Position numbers and translations under genes: made by a program
DNA from: Eubacteriales bacterium
GTDB lineage: Bacteria; Bacillota; Clostridia; Oscillospirales; CAG-272
Direction of reading: 5' to 3'
Length of the DNA: 64,000 nucleotides
Assembly: GCA_045632185.1 (NCBI GenBank)
Contig: JAZQWF010000056.1
Location: 28,168-92,167 of the forward strand
Shown here: positions 3,862 through 28,443 of the stretch, in pieces
Numbering within the stretch: position 1 is the first letter of the stretch
How the letters are laid out: each line of letters starts with the position of its first letter
The notes under the pieces: model-generated
The model's database searches: none
Told to the model about the DNA's origin: nothing
The model's input: the letters and a program-made list of their open reading frames with translations, nothing else

Positions 3862-4688
3862 CAATGTGTGGGGAAATTATAATTATTGTTAGGGGATATG
3901 GGGCGAGGAGAGTGTTTGAATTTGCATTTGGGATAGTTAGAACACCCATAAAACATTCCGTTGCTTCCGTTTCGCATCACTAATACGCCACCGCAGCGAG
4001 GACAAATACCGTTGGAAAGCTGGGCGGCTTTTTCTTTTATGTGCGCAACATGCTCCTCGTTAGTTGCAAAGGATTGATTTTGAAGTAACGTCGTATAAAC
4101 TTGATACATTTTATTGTTATCAAGCACAGGCGTTCCATAGCTGATATACCATTTCAATTTGCTTACAGGAATGGTATAAATGGAGGATATGTTTTGCGTG
4201 TTATTCTGAACAAAAACCACAAGCGAAAATACGGGTACATCGGGAATAAGCTTTTGAATTTGTTTCACATGTACTGCGTTTTGTTGAACAGGGCTGTAAA
4301 AGCTGTTTTTTACTTTTCCATAGTTTAATACCTGCGTCCATTCTTTTCGCGTATCATCACCGTAAACTTGTCCGCTATAATTTTTTGTTTCAATTACAAA
4401 AACACCGATCGAGTTGATAAGGATATGGTCTATCTGGGTGCTGAAACCGTTACCTTGAATGAGATAGTTGTTTAATACATATTGTGCGTTCGGGATCGTT
4501 TGGCCAATGATATTGGAAACAAGCATTTCTCCTGCTTCTCCTCTTAGAGCGCTGCTTCTTTCACGGGAAATATTGTTAGCTTTCTTGCCGGAAACATTGC
4601 TTTCCTTGTAAAGAATATAGATTATTGCCGTAAGCGCAGCAATTGCAATCAGGATGATCAGCGCCAATGCAAAGACGATAAAATCCAT
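3861..4688 (-). CDS. membrane-anchored NERD (nuclease-related) domain protein with a C-terminal C4 zinc ribbon
   Basis: 275 aa. There is an N-terminal TM helix (FALALIILIAIAALTAIIYILY). The central region resembles a NERD domain (GEMLVSNII...QIDHILINSIGVFVIETKNYSG). The C-terminus is a topoisomerase-type zinc ribbon (CPRCGGVLV...YGCSNYPKCKF). A TAGGAGA ribosome-binding site is present. The gene is visibly more AT-rich than its neighbours. Confidence 0.8.
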   Translation of the reverse strand: MDFIVFALALIILIAIAALTAIIYILYKESNVSGKKANNISRERSSALRGEAGEMLVSNIIGQTIPNAQYVLNNYLIQGNGFSTQIDHILINSIGVFVIETKNYSGQVYGDDTRKEWTQVLNYGKVKNSFYSPVQQNAVHVKQIQKLIPDVPVFSLVVFVQNNTQNISSIYTIPVSKLKWYISYGTPVLDNNKMYQVYTTLLQNQSFATNEEHVAHIKEKAAQLSNGICPRCGGVLVMRNGSNGMFYGCSNYPKCKFKHSPRPISPNNNYNFPTH

Positions 4689-12230: not shown

Positions 12231-12331
12231 AATCAATTCCTCCCAATCCCTTTCGGGATAGTTATTGTTAACACTAATTATACCCAAAAAACAAAATTTG
12301 TCAATACTTTTGCAAAAAAACGCACTTTTGT

Positions 12332-24321: not shown

Positions 24322-25092
24322 TTATTTATTCTGATGCAGCACCTCAAAGCCGAGCACGGTGGCAGCAGAGGCAGCGGAAAGGGAACCGCGGAACTCTCTG
24401 CCGTAGTCGATGCGCACAGTCTGGTCGCAAAGTGCCATTACCTCGCGGGAAACGCCGCGTTTTTCGCCGCCAACGACCAATACAAGCGGTTTTTTCAGGT
24501 CTGCCTCGTACATGGAAACCGCGTCGCGGATACCCGCTGTTACGATACGATAGCCCAGCTTTTTCAGCTCGGTCAATGCCGTTAAGGGGTCGCCCGCAAA
24601 GACAGGAAACGCCTCGGAAGCACCCGCAGAGGCGCGTGCTACCACGCCCGCCGCAGAGAGCCAGTTACGCTCGCCGAGCAGAATGGCATCACACCCCGCC
24701 GCGTAAAGCGAGCGCAGAGCATAGCCGAAGTTATAAGGGTCCTCCAACCCTTCCAGATAGCACAAAAAGCCGTTTTTCGGCAGGTTTTGCGCGGTGGGGG
24801 CGGGAAGTGTGCGATCACCGCAAAGGGCGATCACGCCGCCGTGGGTGTTACCGATACAATTTTCCTCGATCGTGGCAGTATCCGTCAGCACAAGGGGAAT
24901 ACCCAGCTCGCGCGTTTTGGCCTGTAAAAAGCCGAATTCGCGCATTTTTTTCTCCTTTTTGGTACGGTCAAACCAGATCTCGTGGATCGGGCGATCATTC
25001 ACGCCCGCCGCCTTGGCTGCAAGCAGCGCGGAGATCGAGGTCATACCTTCCATTATATTAGACGGAACAAATCTTTTTTCTTCTTTGATCAT
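24322..25092 (-). CDS. TrmH/SpoU-family RNA 2'-O-methyltransferase (RlmB-like)
   Basis: 256 aa counted from MIKEEK. It has an N-terminal substrate-binding region and SpoU methylase motifs (LVVGGEKRGVS...IDYGREFRGSLSAASAATV). Confidence 0.85.
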   Translation of the reverse strand: MIKEEKRFVPSNIMEGMTSISALLAAKAAGVNDRPIHEIWFDRTKKEKKMREFGFLQAKTRELGIPLVLTDTATIEENCIGNTHGGVIALCGDRTLPAPTAQNLPKNGFLCYLEGLEDPYNFGYALRSLYAAGCDAILLGERNWLSAAGVVARASAGASEAFPVFAGDPLTALTELKKLGYRIVTAGIRDAVSMYEADLKKPLVLVVGGEKRGVSREVMALCDQTVRIDYGREFRGSLSAASAATVLGFEVLHQNK

Positions 25093-25182
25093 AATTACTT
25101 TCCTTTGTTCTTTTGCGCCGATGCGCCTCATAAGATAAGTATAGCAAATTTTTTGCAATTTTTCAACAGGGGAAAGGGAAAT

Positions 25183-25443
25183 ATGCTACATATTATAGAA
25201 GAAAATCGCTGCGAGGCGTTGGGGCGATATATTGTAAGCTATCAGGCGACCGTGCGTGACACCGCCGCAAAATTTCAGATCAGCAAAAGCACCGTACACA
25301 AGGATGTGACCGCCGTGCTGAAAAATATCAATCGCGGGCTTTATGAGGAGGTCAGTGCCATTTTGCAGAAAAACAAATCAGAGCGCCACCTGCGCGGCGG
25401 CGAGGCCACGCGAAAAAAATACGAGCGAAGCGGCAAAAAATAA
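25183..25443 (+). CDS. spoIIID: stage III sporulation protein D (mother-cell transcription regulator)
   Basis: 86 aa. The sequence MLHIIEENRCEALGRYIVSYQATVRDTAAKFQISKSTVHKDV...SERHLRGGEATRKKY matches the SpoIIID HTH family. A GGGGAAAGGGA ribosome-binding site is present. Confidence 0.9.
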   Translation: MLHIIEENRCEALGRYIVSYQATVRDTAAKFQISKSTVHKDVTAVLKNINRGLYEEVSAILQKNKSERHLRGGEATRKKYERSGKK

Positions 25444-25494
25444 ACGGGGAGGCGAAGAACCCGCCTTATTTGCTTTTTGGCTCATTTATAGATA

Positions 25495-25510
25495 CAATTA
25501 TACAAAATAC
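25495..25510. repeat. left direct repeat (attL core)
   Basis: CAATTATACAAAATAC, identical to 27803-27818. Confidence 0.95.
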
Positions 25511-25638
25511 GGTTTTTGTTTGACTTGAAAGTGGCGGGGGCGCCATTTCCTATCGCGCATTGCGCGGGCGCCTTTCCTTTCCGCCGCTGGGCGCGGGGCT
25601 TGCAACGAGCCAAACCATACAAAAACCCGTATTTTGTA
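25501..25638. repeat. imperfect inverted repeat: left att core paired with an inverted internal copy, enclosing an 83-nt loop
   Basis: Pairing was checked by hand. 25501-25512 pairs with 25627-25638 (12 bp), C25626 is unpaired, 25513-25519 pairs with 25619-25625 (7 bp), and 5 further pairs extend out to 25527/25611. Confidence 0.85.
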
Positions 25639-25771
25639 AGCACATCCGCGCTTCGGCGCGGGTGCGGTTAATTGCCGCGATTTCCGCCACTTGCCGCCGT
25701 CTGCGCGCGCGCGCCCCTCCTTCCCACTCTCCCGCCCGCTGGACAAATATTGCGATTGTGAAAAATCCCGC

Positions 25772-25800
25772 TTGACATTCCACACCAAGCGTGATATAAT
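25772..25800 (+). promoter_or_regulatory. near-consensus sigmaA promoter inside the element, facing rep
   Basis: TTGACA (25772-25777), a 17-nt spacer, then an extended -10 TGaTATAAT (25792-25800). Confidence 0.75.
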
Positions 25801-26138
25801 AAGTGTGCAGATATACCGCATGGTATAAACGCACGCCAAAGTCCACGATCGCGCGCAGGGCTGGGCGCTGTGATCGCGTGCGTAAGCCAAAGGGAGTTCC
25901 CGCAAGGGGGCTCCCTTTTCGCGTCCCCGCGTATGCGGGTATCTGCGCTCCCCCAGCGGGGGACGGGAGGGGGAGAAAACCCGCCCGCGGCGAAACGGGG
26001 TGCAGGGGTACCCCCTGCACGCAAGCCCCCTCGGGGGCACAGCGGAACGGGGGGGGAGGGCGCTCCGTTGCGCCCGTAACTCTCAATGGAGGATTGCAAA
26101 TCCATTACTTGATATATAGGACAGTATGTCATCAAATC
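25801..26138 (+). other. hairpin-dense GC-rich leader (candidate structured RNA or single-strand origin)
   Basis: There are successive stem-loops: GGGAG..CCC-GCAA-GGG..CTCCC (25893-25916), CCCGC-GTAT-GCGGG, CCCCC-AGC-GGGGG, GTGCAGGGG-TAC-CCCCTGCAC (a 9-bp stem) and GCCCC-CTCG-GGGGC. Translations in all frames are low-complexity G/R/P. Confidence 0.45.
26107..26115 (+). other. candidate rolling-circle nick site (phiX174-ori-like ACTTGATAT)
   Basis: There is a 9-nt identity to my recollection of the phiX174 origin core CAACTTG/ATATTAATAAC. The motif lies immediately 3' of a GGATT-GCA-AATCC hairpin and 24 nt upstream of the rep ATG. Confidence 0.3.
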
Positions 26139-26972
26139 ATGCAATTCCAGTCCAGCCAAAAACTAAATTCTTTTTCCGCCCCAGCGGAAAAATTCCACGC
26201 CCGCGCAAAGTACATTCCCGACGGAAACGGCGGCTTAAAACTCGCTATGGTTCAGGGCTTTACATTCCCGATGTTCAATCCCGACGCCGACGCCTCCGCC
26301 GTCAAAAAAAGCGGCGTTGCCGAGGATCCCGCCCCGCGCGATCCTACGGCTTCGCCCGCGCTTGCCGATGTTGAGCGCGCTTCCCGCCGCGCGAAAATTT
26401 CCGCTTTCGATAAAATCCTCTGCAATCCCGACCTTGACACCTTCGCCACATTCACCTATGCTCCCGATTTTGTGACCGATAAAGCCGATTGGGACGCGTG
26501 CTACCGCTATTTGAAAAATTGGCTTTCCAACCGCGTCCAGCGCGATGGCTTAAAATATGTGATTGTTCCCGAGCGTCACAAATCGGGGGATATTCATTTC
26601 CACGGGATTTTGAACAGCAGCGCGCTTGACCTTTCGCGCGCGGTGTCACCGAAAAGCGGCCGCCCGCTTTCCCACAAGGGCAACCCGCTTTTCAACATAC
26701 CCGATTGGCGCGGCGGCTTCACTTCTGCCGAGATTATTCAAGGCGGCGCGCAAGACCGCGAAAAAGTGGCAAAATATATTTTCAAGTACATGGGCAAGCA
26801 AGCGGGCGCGAAAGTCGGCGGGCGGTATATGCTTTCCGGCGGTGATCTTGTTTTGCCGACTTATGTTTACGAGCAGAGTATTGACGCGCTGCTTGACGGC
26901 ACCACGCCCGTTTATGATCGCGCCGTCGATCTTGGGGAGCGGGGTAAATATTTTGAGTACAGTTTTATTTGA
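26139..26972 (+). CDS. rolling-circle replication initiator, HUH superfamily I (two-tyrosine, Microviridae gpA/VP4-like)
   Basis: 277 aa counted from the first ATG after the structured region. Motif I is FATFTY, motif II is GDIHFHGIL (HUH), and motif III is KYIFKYMGK (Y-x-x-x-Y). The start codon is uncertain because no clear ribosome-binding site is present and the ORF stays open upstream to 25803. Confidence 0.75.
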   Translation: MQFQSSQKLNSFSAPAEKFHARAKYIPDGNGGLKLAMVQGFTFPMFNPDADASAVKKSGVAEDPAPRDPTASPALADVERASRRAKISAFDKILCNPDLDTFATFTYAPDFVTDKADWDACYRYLKNWLSNRVQRDGLKYVIVPERHKSGDIHFHGILNSSALDLSRAVSPKSGRPLSHKGNPLFNIPDWRGGFTSAEIIQGGAQDREKVAKYIFKYMGKQAGAKVGGRYMLSGGDLVLPTYVYEQSIDALLDGTTPVYDRAVDLGERGKYFEYSFI

Positions 26973-27109
26973 CAATGTGTCCCAAAAACGGGACGCAAAA
27001 TGCAGCCGCCCGCCGACGGCCGCCGCCCCCGGTGGTTGGCGGTGGGTGGAAGCCGCGCCCGCGCGGCAAAAACCCAGCCAAAAACAATTTAACAGTTTAG
27101 GAGTGTAAA

Positions 27110-27676
27110 ATGCAGAGCAAATACCTTGAAGCCCGCGAAATCTCCGCTTTGCGGCGTGAAGCGGGCGTAGAGTGGTTGCCGCTGGAAGTGGCATTTTTGA
27201 CGGGGCTGCGGATTGGTGATGTGCTGAAAATCCGCCCGTGTGATCTCACGCCGCAGGGCGTAGTTTACACGGCGGAAAAAACGGGCAAGCGTGGATTTGC
27301 GCCCCTGCCGCCAACGGTCTTGGCGGCGTTGCATAAAAATGCGCGGGGAGAATGGTGCTTTCCCTCGCCAAAGGCGAAAGGGAAGCACCTCACGCGCCAA
27401 GCCGCATGGCAACGCATAAAGAGAGCCGCCAAGCGCGCAGGGGTGGAGCCGCGCGGGGTGAGCCCGCACGCCCTGCGCAAAAGTTTTGCAGTGGAGCGCA
27501 TGCACACGGGGGGCTTGCAAGCGGTGCAGGCGGCGTTACAGCATGACAGCGCGGGTGTAACCGAGATTTACGCGCTTTCCGACTGGCTGACGGGGGAAAA
27601 CGCAAACAAGCCGCTTTTGCGCCGCGACCTGCAAGCCATTGCGACAAAAATTGCCGAGTTGCTTCGGGGGGGTTGA
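27110..27676 (+). CDS. tyrosine recombinase/integrase, catalytic domain only (188 aa)
   Basis: An AGGAG ribosome-binding site is present, and an in-frame TAG 12 nt upstream prevents any N-terminal extension. The catalytic signature is complete: Arg (LTGLRIGDV), Lys (EKTGKR), HxxR (SPHALRKSF), His (LQHDS) and the Tyr nucleophile (VTEIY). Confidence 0.85.
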   Translation: MQSKYLEAREISALRREAGVEWLPLEVAFLTGLRIGDVLKIRPCDLTPQGVVYTAEKTGKRGFAPLPPTVLAALHKNARGEWCFPSPKAKGKHLTRQAAWQRIKRAAKRAGVEPRGVSPHALRKSFAVERMHTGGLQAVQAALQHDSAGVTEIYALSDWLTGENANKPLLRRDLQAIATKIAELLRGG

Positions 27677-27802
27677 TTTTTGCGGGTTTCCGTGGTAACA
27701 TAGTGGGGAAAGGAGGTTGTCCTATAAAACAGCCATCTTCCTTTGGAGTTACCGCAAACAGGGGCGCTGTGCGCGCAGGTGGCGGCTTTTAATATGGCGG
27801 GG

Positions 27803-27818
27803 CAATTATACAAAATAC
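27803..27818. repeat. right direct repeat (attR core)
   Basis: CAATTATACAAAATAC. It is embedded in the perfect palindrome TATACAAAA-TACAAG-TTTTGTATA (27807-27830). Confidence 0.95.
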
Positions 27819-27966
27819 AAGTTTTGTATAAAAGAGGGGATCTAAAAAGGGCCTGAATACGGGGGTTTGGTGCGTCTGCGGCCTGATTTATGCTTGGGCG
27901 TGATATTCGGCCTGGATTTTTGATGGTTTTGCCTTCCTACGCAATTTTGATGTTTTTTGATCTGCT

Positions 27967-28108
27967 GCGTTAAAAATTTTTTCTTCAAACGATCAACACC
28001 CCGTACCGCACAATTATTTTTAACGTGCCTTTTTTCTTTGGAGCGCACTTACGGCATAAATTTTTCTTAAAAGCTTATTTTCAAAAAATGAGCGTTAAAA
28101 ATTTTTTC
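27967..28108. repeat. 17-bp perfect direct repeat pair GCGTTAAAAATTTTTTC (27967-27983 and 28092-28108) with inverted partial copies
   Basis: The two copies are exact and 125 bp apart. Partial inverted copies lie at 28016-28025 (ACGTTAAAAA on the minus strand) and 28144-28154 (GCTGCGTTAAA on the minus strand). Confidence 0.8.
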
Positions 28109-28443
28109 CTGTAACGGACTGTGCATCGTTTTTCATCATTTCATTTAACGCAGCAAAACGCCGCCGAGGCACCATCATATAAAATCCGAAAGCAATACAA
28201 ACATCACTTTGTAAAAAAATCCTTTTTCTTCTTTTTGTTAATGTTTTAACAATCAAAAGAAAAGCTTTGAGATTTTTATACAAAACAAAATCTTATAAAT
28301 TGTAAATAGTACCGATTTTTTCGTGTTTGTTCAAAAAAAGATTGCCCTTATTTTAGTTTTATGTTATAATATCTGCGTATGGTTGAAAGTATGCTTTACG
28401 GCAAGCTTTCCTATCAAAAAATTCATCGGAGGTTTACCGAATT

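Follow-up and report, generated by a model that had tools for sequence, protein, structure and literature searches.

The 64,000-nt stretch of Eubacteriales bacterium contig JAZQWF010000056.1 analyzed here (hereafter referred to as the window) carries, at positions 25495-27802, an element of 2,308 bp in which the left attachment site (attL), a non-coding module, the genes rep and int, and the right attachment site (attR) follow one another. Its gene content is limited to rep, which encodes a rolling-circle initiator, and a truncated integrase gene, and about a quarter of its DNA is structured non-coding sequence. Our subject is the 367-nt region at 25772-26138, immediately upstream of rep. An earlier note on this DNA had described the region as a near-ideal sigma-A promoter driving a single structured leader of ~330 nt. 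Using a comparison set of 58 related loci, we found that it is composed of four parts: a promoter (promoter P1), a gene for a predicted small RNA (sRNA-1), a hairpin-rich spacer, and a 33-nt block with the putative double-strand origin of replication. The coordinates of these and of the other features of the element are given in Table 1.

Table 1. Features of the 2,308-bp element and its control region, in window coordinates
Feature	Position	Strand	Remarks
attL of the 2,308-bp element	25495..25519	+	CAATTATACAAAATACGGTTTTTGT; direct repeat with 27803-27827
Promoter P1	25772..25800	+	sigma-A/sigma-70 consensus with extended -10; TTGACA 25772-25777, 17-nt spacer, TG 25792-25793, TATAAT 25795-25800
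sRNA-1 (predicted, ~113 nt)	25807..25919	+	promoter-to-terminator unit, covarying fold
sRNA-1 hairpin P1	25812-25827	+	
sRNA-1 long hairpin P2	25829-25883	+	
sRNA-1 hairpin P2, 5'-side internal loop	25837-25846	+	CAAAGUCCAC
sRNA-1 hairpin P2, apical loop	25857-25864	+	AGGGCUGG
sRNA-1 apical-loop segment	25859..25866	+	GGCUGGGC; complementary to rep codons 4-7
sRNA-1 intrinsic terminator	25889-25919	+	GC hairpin, then TTTT
GC-rich hairpin spacer	25920..26104	+	70% G+C; hairpins H1-H5
H1	25926-25939	+	CCCGC-GTAT-GCGGG
H2	25950-25962	+	CCCCC-AGC-GGGGG; present in some relatives, absent in others
H3	26000-26020	+	GTGCAGGGG-TAC-CCCCTGCAC
H4	26025-26038	+	GCCCC..GGGGC
GCGGAAC motif	26042-26048	+	
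GGAG-GGCG-CTCC hairpin	26055-26066	+	
H5	26058-26075	+	
Double-strand origin block, 33 nt (putative)	26105..26137	+	TTACTTGATATATAGGACAGTATGTCATCAAAT; CTTGATA 26108-26114
rep, HUH rolling-circle initiator, 277 aa	26139..26972	+	Pfam PF23343 REP_ORF2-G2P, 1.1e-13
Candidate antisense target in rep	26150-26157	+	GUCCAGCC
int, small tyrosine integrase, 188 aa	27110..27676	+	Pfam Phage_integrase, 6.4e-19; catalytic domain only
Second promoter P2	27673-27701	+	TTGATT-17-TGgTAACAT; overlaps int stop codon
sRNA-2 (predicted, ~83 nt)	about 27708-27790	+	second terminated transcript of the element
attR of the 2,308-bp element	27803..27831	+	CAATTATACAAAATACAAGTTTTGTATAA; palindromic

Promoter P1 agrees with the consensus at 12/12 positions and possesses, in addition, the TG of an extended -10 element. 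A promoter of the type TTGACA-17-TGnTAnnnT is found at the same position in ~30 related loci, and the earlier description of the promoter is thus borne out. The 64-kb window contains two perfect TTGACA-N16-18-TATAAT sites, compared to 0.02 expected from shuffled sequences. No further promoter was detected on the + strand between promoter P1 and rep, no - strand promoter facing the rep start was found, and 26100-26400 contains no promoter-like site on the - strand. The other perfect promoter of the window (TTGACA-N16-TATAAT) is located at 12277-12304 on the - strand. An inverted repeat (CGCTTG/CAAGCG, 25769-25791) lies over the -35 box of promoter P1; it covaries in relatives, where it appears as CACGCTTG/CAGGCGTG and CCCCTTG/CAAGGGG, and it reads on the - strand as a hairpin followed by a T-run. 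The motif GACAAATATTGCGATT (25742-25757), ~15 nt upstream of the -35 box, is kept in close relatives and may represent an operator or an UP-like element.

The transcript started by promoter P1 is predicted to be short. The hairpin GGGAG..CCC-GCAA-GGG..CTCCC at 25892-25915, immediately followed by TTTT at 25916-25919, constitutes an intrinsic terminator, and such a terminator is located 100-150 nt 3' of the promoter in 30/30 compiled units. All six hairpins that the earlier note had listed are present within 1 nt of where it had placed them; the first of them, with its GNRA loop, is real but is this terminator rather than a leader hairpin, and the other five lie downstream of it in the spacer. 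The single ~330-nt leader is therefore not upheld. Because transcription from promoter P1 would meet the conserved terminator after ~113 nt, the comparison shows sRNA-1 to be a separate small RNA gene of ~113 nt, predicted to end at its own terminator, and not part of a long leader.

Folding of 25807-26138 gives -168.7 kcal/mol on the + strand, with z = -5.8 relative to dinucleotide shuffles, and z = -3.5 on the - strand. Single-sequence folding of 25 family members produced the same design each time, that is, hairpin P1, the long hairpin P2 and the terminator. Hairpin P2 contains an outer helix of 8 bp and an inner helix, separated on the 5' side only by a loop of ~11 nt with the consensus C-n-u-n-w-G-W-C-C-R-y. 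Both P2 helices were recovered by RNAalifold on a plain MAFFT alignment of 12 members, with compensatory changes in 14/17 pairs. For 18 divergent sRNA bodies, plain MAFFT placed the 3' half out of register, and this alignment was kept out of the pair counts.

Further support for the fold was obtained with covariance models. A model built from seven close copies (R1) was too narrow, and one iteration with filters off resulted in model R2, which was built without the window's own sequence and finds 20 copies in other loci. In the 64-kb window, R2 has a single match, at 25807-25889 (78.4 bits, E 1.5e-15). In the model-guided alignment of the 20 copies, which leans towards the structure as it was fitted to the model but agrees with the MAFFT-based result, 92.0% of cells are paired, compared to 58.9 +/- 2.0% in shuffles, with 0/500 shuffles reaching this value. 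This amounts to strong covariation. Double-changed cells amount to 112 (32 +/- 5 in shuffles) and double changes occur in 17/18 pairs, while in a control with partners slid by 1-3 columns only 24-46% of cells remained paired. The outer helix of P2 is 98.7% paired and has compensatory changes in seven of its eight pairs. G-U pairs are frequent in the sRNA-1 helices, which identifies the + strand as the folded one. The Rfam scan suggested in the earlier note gave no match at the gathering threshold in the window, at E<=10 in 25000-27000, or, with E<=0.05, in 12 related loci; whatever scored, such as int-alpA on the wrong strand with 22 bits (cut-off 35.8), stayed below threshold and is ascribed to chance.

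The 3' end of the region belongs to replication. Besides its Pfam match, Rep matches PHROG families of rolling-circle initiation proteins, and its translation contains HFH and YxxKY motifs. The 33-nt block immediately upstream is the most conserved sequence of the whole element: it is 85-97% identical in 16/19 genomic loci in which Rep itself is only 38-55% identical, and it is also present in most metagenomic loci; CTTGATA itself is conserved in nearly all loci. CTTGATA is reported as the conserved nick sequence within the double-strand origin of pC194-type Rep proteins and replicons (PMC10378824). As in pC194/phiX174-type origins, CTTGATA here adjoins an HUH Rep gene, and nine consecutive bases, ACTTGATAT, are common to the block and the 30-nt origin of phiX174/G4 (4299-4328, inside gene A). 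In the phiX174 origin, we take the cut to fall after the G; on this basis, a nick is predicted between G26111 and A26112 on the + strand, which would make the + strand the displaced one. Unlike those replicons, however, the window's Rep belongs to PF23343 (ORF2/G2P) and not to Rep_1 or Phage_GPA, and the rest of the block, TAGGACAGTATGTCATC, is specific to its own family. By sequence, therefore, the origin is a member of the CTTGATA group at the superfamily level only. The rolling-circle context raised in the earlier note is correct, and with it a single-strand origin is a possibility; the 3' end of the region is the putative double-strand origin with its predicted nick site. The rep gene has no Shine-Dalgarno sequence, and its start codon is found 8-12 nt after the origin block in all loci, so that the translation start region and the nick site overlap.

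Comparison of the sRNA-1 loops with the rep start revealed antisense complementarity. In the window, GGCUGGGC in the apical loop of hairpin P2 (mean unpaired probability 0.97) can pair with GUCCAGCC in the candidate target through six Watson-Crick pairs with G-U and G-C extensions. The duplex has an energy of -15.7 kcal/mol, compared to -8.6 +/- 2.1 for shuffled loops. The pairing segments of the relatives are also mostly unpaired in the sRNA-1 ensemble. Two versions of the arrangement exist. One clade uses its internal loop to pair with the start codon of rep and codons 2-3: UGUCCAC with GUGGACA in L026, UUACCCAC with GUGGGUAA in L027, CAUCCAC with GUGGAUG in L014 and L015, and UGUCCAU with AUGGACA in L036; in L010 and L006, the same pairing includes one G-U each. 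In the window's clade, it is the apical loop of P2 that pairs, with rep codons 4-7: GGCUGG with CCAGCC in the window (25859-25864 and 26152-26157), L049 and L021, GGACUGG with CCAGUCC in L023, UGGCUGG with CCAGCCA in L022, UUGGAUUGG with CCAAUCCAA in L052, and AUUGGAUUGG with CCAAUCCAAU in L053, the last two being summarized as (A)UUGGAUUGG / CCAAUCCAA(U). When entire elements were searched for sequences complementary to the internal loop, no consistent site emerged except in L026 and L027; there the complement lies at the start codon of rep, directly behind the origin block, and loop and target have changed in concert.

The specificity of this signal was assessed with the longest contiguous Watson-Crick complement, which replaced RNAduplex on the whole sRNA and the rep start, as the latter gave long interrupted duplexes and was too noisy. 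The mean was 6.60 nt for cognate pairs and 5.58 nt for non-cognate pairs (0/10,000 permutations), and 15/30 loci have a complement of at least 7 nt to their cognate rep start. Five control windows of 45 nt inside rep gave p = 0.2-0.7, with one at 0.014, and the sense orientation gave p = 0.09. Pairing of the GUCC in the internal loop with the GGAC of the origin block was considered separately and rejected, since relatives with GACC loops keep GGACAG.

Taken together, these data suggest that 25772-26138 forms a module in which an integrative rolling-circle replicon of 2.3 kb combines its control and origin functions, with sRNA-1 antisense to rep; we put the probability of this interpretation at roughly 0.6. 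A structured RNA with a regulatory or antisense-target role had been among the possibilities raised in the earlier note, and the covarying fold and the loops complementary to the rep start support a structured regulatory RNA that stands in an antisense relation to rep. The comparative data lend fairly good support to a role of sRNA-1 in repressing Rep synthesis by antisense pairing, from a gene that lies upstream of rep on the rep strand. In this model, the unpaired P2 loops of sRNA-1 would pair with the start codon or first codons of rep and hinder ribosome binding, thereby repressing translation. Because promoter P1 is strong and constitutive, the level of sRNA-1 would follow the copy number of the element, which would provide negative feedback on replication; while the element is integrated, sRNA-1 would keep Rep low. 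Since no other + strand promoter is detectable, the rep mRNA probably arises by read-through of the sRNA-1 terminator, and regulator and target would thus share one transcription unit.

Several observations weigh against this interpretation. The complementarity in the window comprises only six Watson-Crick pairs, or eight pairs with one G-U, and no complement of at least 7 nt is present in L001, L008, L024, L043, L057 and L058. The conserved G-W-C-C-R motif of the internal loop is unexplained in the window's own clade. The permutation p-value (p<2e-4) overstates independence because the sequences are phylogenetically related, and the counts of flanking G-U and A-C combinations (9 vs 6) do not separate RNA pairing from a DNA inverted repeat. 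In addition, as rep lacks a Shine-Dalgarno sequence, its mRNA might be leaderless and start from a weak promoter within the origin block.

Other explanations were weighed against the same data. The whole stretch from promoter to rep might be a cis-acting leader, a riboswitch or attenuator whose folded 5' part responds to a signal, determines whether the terminator forms and thereby controls rep transcription, with no function in trans, as promoter P1 is the sole recognizable + strand promoter upstream of rep, a terminator stands between the two, and the folded domain is conserved. However, the longest complement that the RNA body offers to the terminator's 5' arm averages 4.27 nt, compared to 4.52 nt for shuffled arms, and 0/30 reach 7 nt; with no antiterminator potential, a classical attenuator is improbable. 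Terminator and rep are between 68 and 666 nt apart in the different loci, and a leader would leave the covariation of the loops with the rep start region unexplained, which makes this explanation unlikely. It is also conceivable, if rather unlikely, that sRNA-1 is real but serves the integrase (as a cofactor or in directionality), Rep at the origin, or host genes, the matches to rep being protein-bound DNA repeats or chance. Such a function would agree with the conservation of G-W-C-C-R even where rep has no complement to it, with an integrase reduced to its catalytic domain, with a second small RNA next to the att site that has a related CUGUCC motif, with the inconclusive 9 vs 6 flank counts, and with the members that have no clear complementarity. 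On the other hand, the complementary segments sit in unpaired loops and on the rep start or first codons, loop and target covary in at least nine sequence versions, and the signal shows specificity for both the start region and the antisense orientation. A scan of the related elements found no consistent sRNA-1 complement in int, and no complementarity of sRNA-1 to the att core was found.

A role at the DNA level, with all hairpins of 25807-26104 together forming the single-strand origin of the displaced + strand and the promoter being incidental or serving rep only, appears very improbable. The hairpins do lie directly upstream of the nick site, the usual location of such origins in rolling-circle plasmids (PMC5714925), on the strand predicted to be displaced, and this strand folds better than the - strand. 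Nevertheless, the 5' third is bounded by RNA-level signals, namely a conserved strong promoter and a U-tract terminator, its helices contain many G-U pairs, and neither a CS-6 motif nor similarity to known plasmids was found. A negligible chance is left to the region being an N-terminal extension of Rep, which the earlier note had named as a finding that would speak against its proposal. The frame is indeed open from GTG 25803 to the rep stop codon (ORF, open reading frame, 25803-26972). In the relatives, however, stop codons occur 27-258 nt upstream of the rep ATG in 6/7 cases (in L052 the frame is open for 420 nt), indels are not multiples of three, and Rep homologues start at the downstream ATG; moreover, a terminator would lie inside the supposed coding region. 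No ORF in the region matches a protein family. The extension was therefore excluded and, given the absence of family matches and the closure of the upstream frame in 6/7 relatives, the region is regarded as non-coding although every frame is open, as the earlier note had assumed.

The hairpins of the spacer also appear to be under selection. In seven close relatives they are kept through compensatory changes, such as CCCGC/GCGGG to CCCUGU/ACAGGG in H1 and GCAG/CUGC to GUUG/CAAC in H3; these were read directly from the spacer alignment (A2), as column-wise pair counts were abandoned because the hairpin registers shift. The + strand is more stable than the - strand in 23/29 loci, and folding of the window's spacer as single-stranded DNA gives z = -3.1 on the + strand and -2.6 on the - strand. 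Moreover, a hairpin followed by GCGGAAY is present in 16/29 spacers from different clades. The compensatory changes, the strand bias and this recurrent hairpin point to selection on the single-stranded + form, which could be either the read-through RNA or the displaced DNA. The spacer hairpins may accordingly serve as a single-strand origin for lagging-strand priming or else as a structured 5' untranslated region (UTR) of rep, and we advance either assignment only weakly. For the single-strand origin in particular, the odds are a good deal below even. Like the ssoA and ssoU origins, the spacer is non-coding, hairpin-rich, strand-biased and variable between relatives, and it lies just upstream of the nick site, the classical location in rolling-circle plasmids (PMC5714925). 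Unlike them, it has no CS-6 motif and no similarity to plasmid records: CS-6 (TAGCG[TA]) occurs in 2/29 spacers compared to 3.2 expected by chance, and no plasmid in PLSDB is similar. This assignment is further weakened by relatives with a spacer of only 68-73 nt, within an overall range of 68-666 nt, and by the imperfect palindrome at 25495-25640, an equally good candidate that folds better as single-stranded DNA (z = -4.8 on the + strand). No obvious promoter-like hairpin was seen in the spacer. The + strand of the spacer (25950-26060 and the corresponding parts of relatives) has runs of G-tracts, for example GGGGGACGGGAGGGGGAG in the window and GGGGCGGGGGGGCTGATGGGAAGGGG in L001, which in some relatives fit G-quadruplex patterns.

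The palindrome at 25495-25640 spans ~140 nt and can be formed by attL, a second att-like site and the conserved segment between them. The second site is inverted, lies ~100 nt inside attL (25617-25640), and is followed by a hairpin and GGTTAATTG. When folded, the structure resembles the attP of CTX phage or a pal-type single-strand origin.

Regarding its relation to known systems, the logic of the proposed circuit is that of antisense copy-number control in plasmids; such control of rep is textbook knowledge for rolling-circle plasmids, where a countertranscript normally acts as the regulator. RNAII of pMV158 and RNAI/II of pT181 are small, constitutive, terminated RNAs that pair with the start region of the rep mRNA and set the copy number; their genes lie on the opposite strand across the target, and their complementarity to it is complete. 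In contrast, sRNA-1 is encoded on the rep strand ~290 nt upstream, has a loop complementarity of 6-10 nt only, and belongs to an element with no - strand promoter facing the rep start. A closer parallel is the CI RNA of satellite phage P4, which is sense-encoded in an operon leader and pairs with complementary sites on the same transcript, causing premature transcription termination and thereby controlling immunity. Like CI RNA, sRNA-1 is small, sense-encoded and part of a small integrative replicon; it differs in that its target is the rep start region and its carrier is a rolling-circle replicon five times smaller than P4. The C4 RNA of P1 and P7 acts by short loop complementarity to its target mRNA near the translation start. 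As cited in PMC8198154, Citron & Schuster (1990) place C4 upstream of its target within one transcription unit, the immI operon c4-icd-ant. The arrangement of sRNA-1, upstream of its target on the same strand and with loops complementary near the translation start, is alike, but the two RNAs have no sequence or structure homology (there is no Rfam C4 match), the C4 target is an antirepressor operon rather than a rolling-circle rep gene, and C4 is cut from the operon transcript while sRNA-1, by its sequence, is predicted to end at its own terminator.

To our knowledge, the layout of a same-strand regulator upstream of its target is known from P1/P7 and P4 immunity and not from plasmid copy control. 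What would be new here is a regulator in the form of a separate, structured small RNA gene on the same strand, of which a few loop nucleotides co-evolve with the rep start. The RNA family of sRNA-1 is absent from Rfam. For annotation, the locus illustrates that an RNA gene, a terminator and an origin can all be concealed in what looks like a "long structured leader".

The element carrying this module has been found both as free circles and as integrated copies. The search for Rep homologues in public data yielded 473 sequences (E<1e-10), nearly all of them on contigs of 2.2-3.0 kb. Several of these contigs have terminal repeats equal in length to the assembler k-mer size, and they are therefore circles, of 2,170-2,609 bp. 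In the circles, the DNA downstream of int runs through a single att site, at which both flanks of the element meet, into the "leader" side. In gut metagenomes, the family thus occurs as free circles of 2.2-2.6 kb, with relatives of up to 4.4 kb, and integrated copies that share the same right-hand host neighbors are also present among the relatives. The related loci come from metagenome-assembled gut Clostridia (Eubacteriales, Candidatus Flemingiibacterium, and Oscillospiraceae). With rep, int and att sites, and with free and integrated forms both in existence, the element is a minimal integrative rolling-circle replicon. A blastn search of the whole element against phage records and the plasmid collection PLSDB gave no match, and scans of viral contigs gave essentially nothing, with one distant Rep. 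The replicons that carry the module, tiny at 2.2-4.4 kb, seem to make up a very abundant family in gut Clostridia that has not previously been described. For gut Firmicutes that are difficult to manipulate, the element's promoter, terminator, origin, att site and integrase could be assembled into a shuttle or integration vector of very small size.

The order of parts from att to rep is constant in the relatives: two att-like half-site pairs, a GC-rich segment, the promoter, a terminated transcript of 100-150 nt, a spacer of 68-666 nt, a conserved block of ~30 nt and the rep start codon. In the window, the element is flanked by direct repeats (CAATTATACAAAATAC..., 25495-25519 and 27803-27831) and inserted downstream of spoIIID (end at 25443), and the reconstructed attB is a perfect palindrome, TTATACAAAA-TACAAG-TTTTGTATAA. 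The host genes on the other side encode a protein of 141 aa, an enzyme resembling phosphoglycerate mutase, and a signal peptidase. Integrative mobilizable elements of streptococci also pair a tyrosine integrase with rolling-circle initiators of phage type (PHA00330, Rep_2), and the initiator in such elements may serve both maintenance and transfer (PMC5704250). The window element differs from them in being much smaller (2.3 kb), without a coupling protein or cargo, in its abundance as a free circle, and in its two predicted small RNA genes, none being described in that review.

The integrase aligns only to the C-terminal, catalytic half of XerC/XerD models and has no core-binding domain; in size it is like the FimB/FimE recombinases. 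The sRNA-2 predicted next to it starts with GAAAGGAGG, forms a CUGUCC hairpin, and has its terminator just before the att core. This RNA and its promoter are kept in at least 13 related loci. The origin block contains a complement, TATAGGACA (26115-26123), of the sRNA-2 segment UGUCCUAUA (27718-27726), and both sequences are invariant. The integrase start region is nearly invariant as well, and its similarity to sRNA-2 is in the sense, not the antisense, orientation. Circularization places sRNA-2 upstream of sRNA-1 and rep along a single transcription axis, and integration parts it from them, so that the two RNAs could let the element sense its integrated or excised state and link replication with recombination. 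Two small RNAs might then run the element as a circuit, with sRNA-1 pairing with the rep start and sRNA-2 with the origin block and rep 5' UTR at UAUAGGACA, and the GUCC motif conserved in both RNAs may be read by Rep or by the integrase. We regard such a circuit as quite improbable; if it exists, it would amount to a state switch based on RNA, for which no counterpart has been described in plasmids.

Two minor observations concern the remaining intergenic DNA. The segment between rep and int (26973-27109) is GC-rich and free of ORFs in the window, and close relatives (L021, L049, and L050/L051) have an ORF of 55-83 aa there with a weak Pfam match to Exonuc_VII_S. Beyond attR, within 27832-28440, a 450-nt AT-rich stretch (~35% G+C) without ORFs ends at a degenerate third att-like copy, which is located at 28276-28321 in the window and ~840 nt beyond attR in other loci; this stretch may be a decayed tandem element or a satellite.

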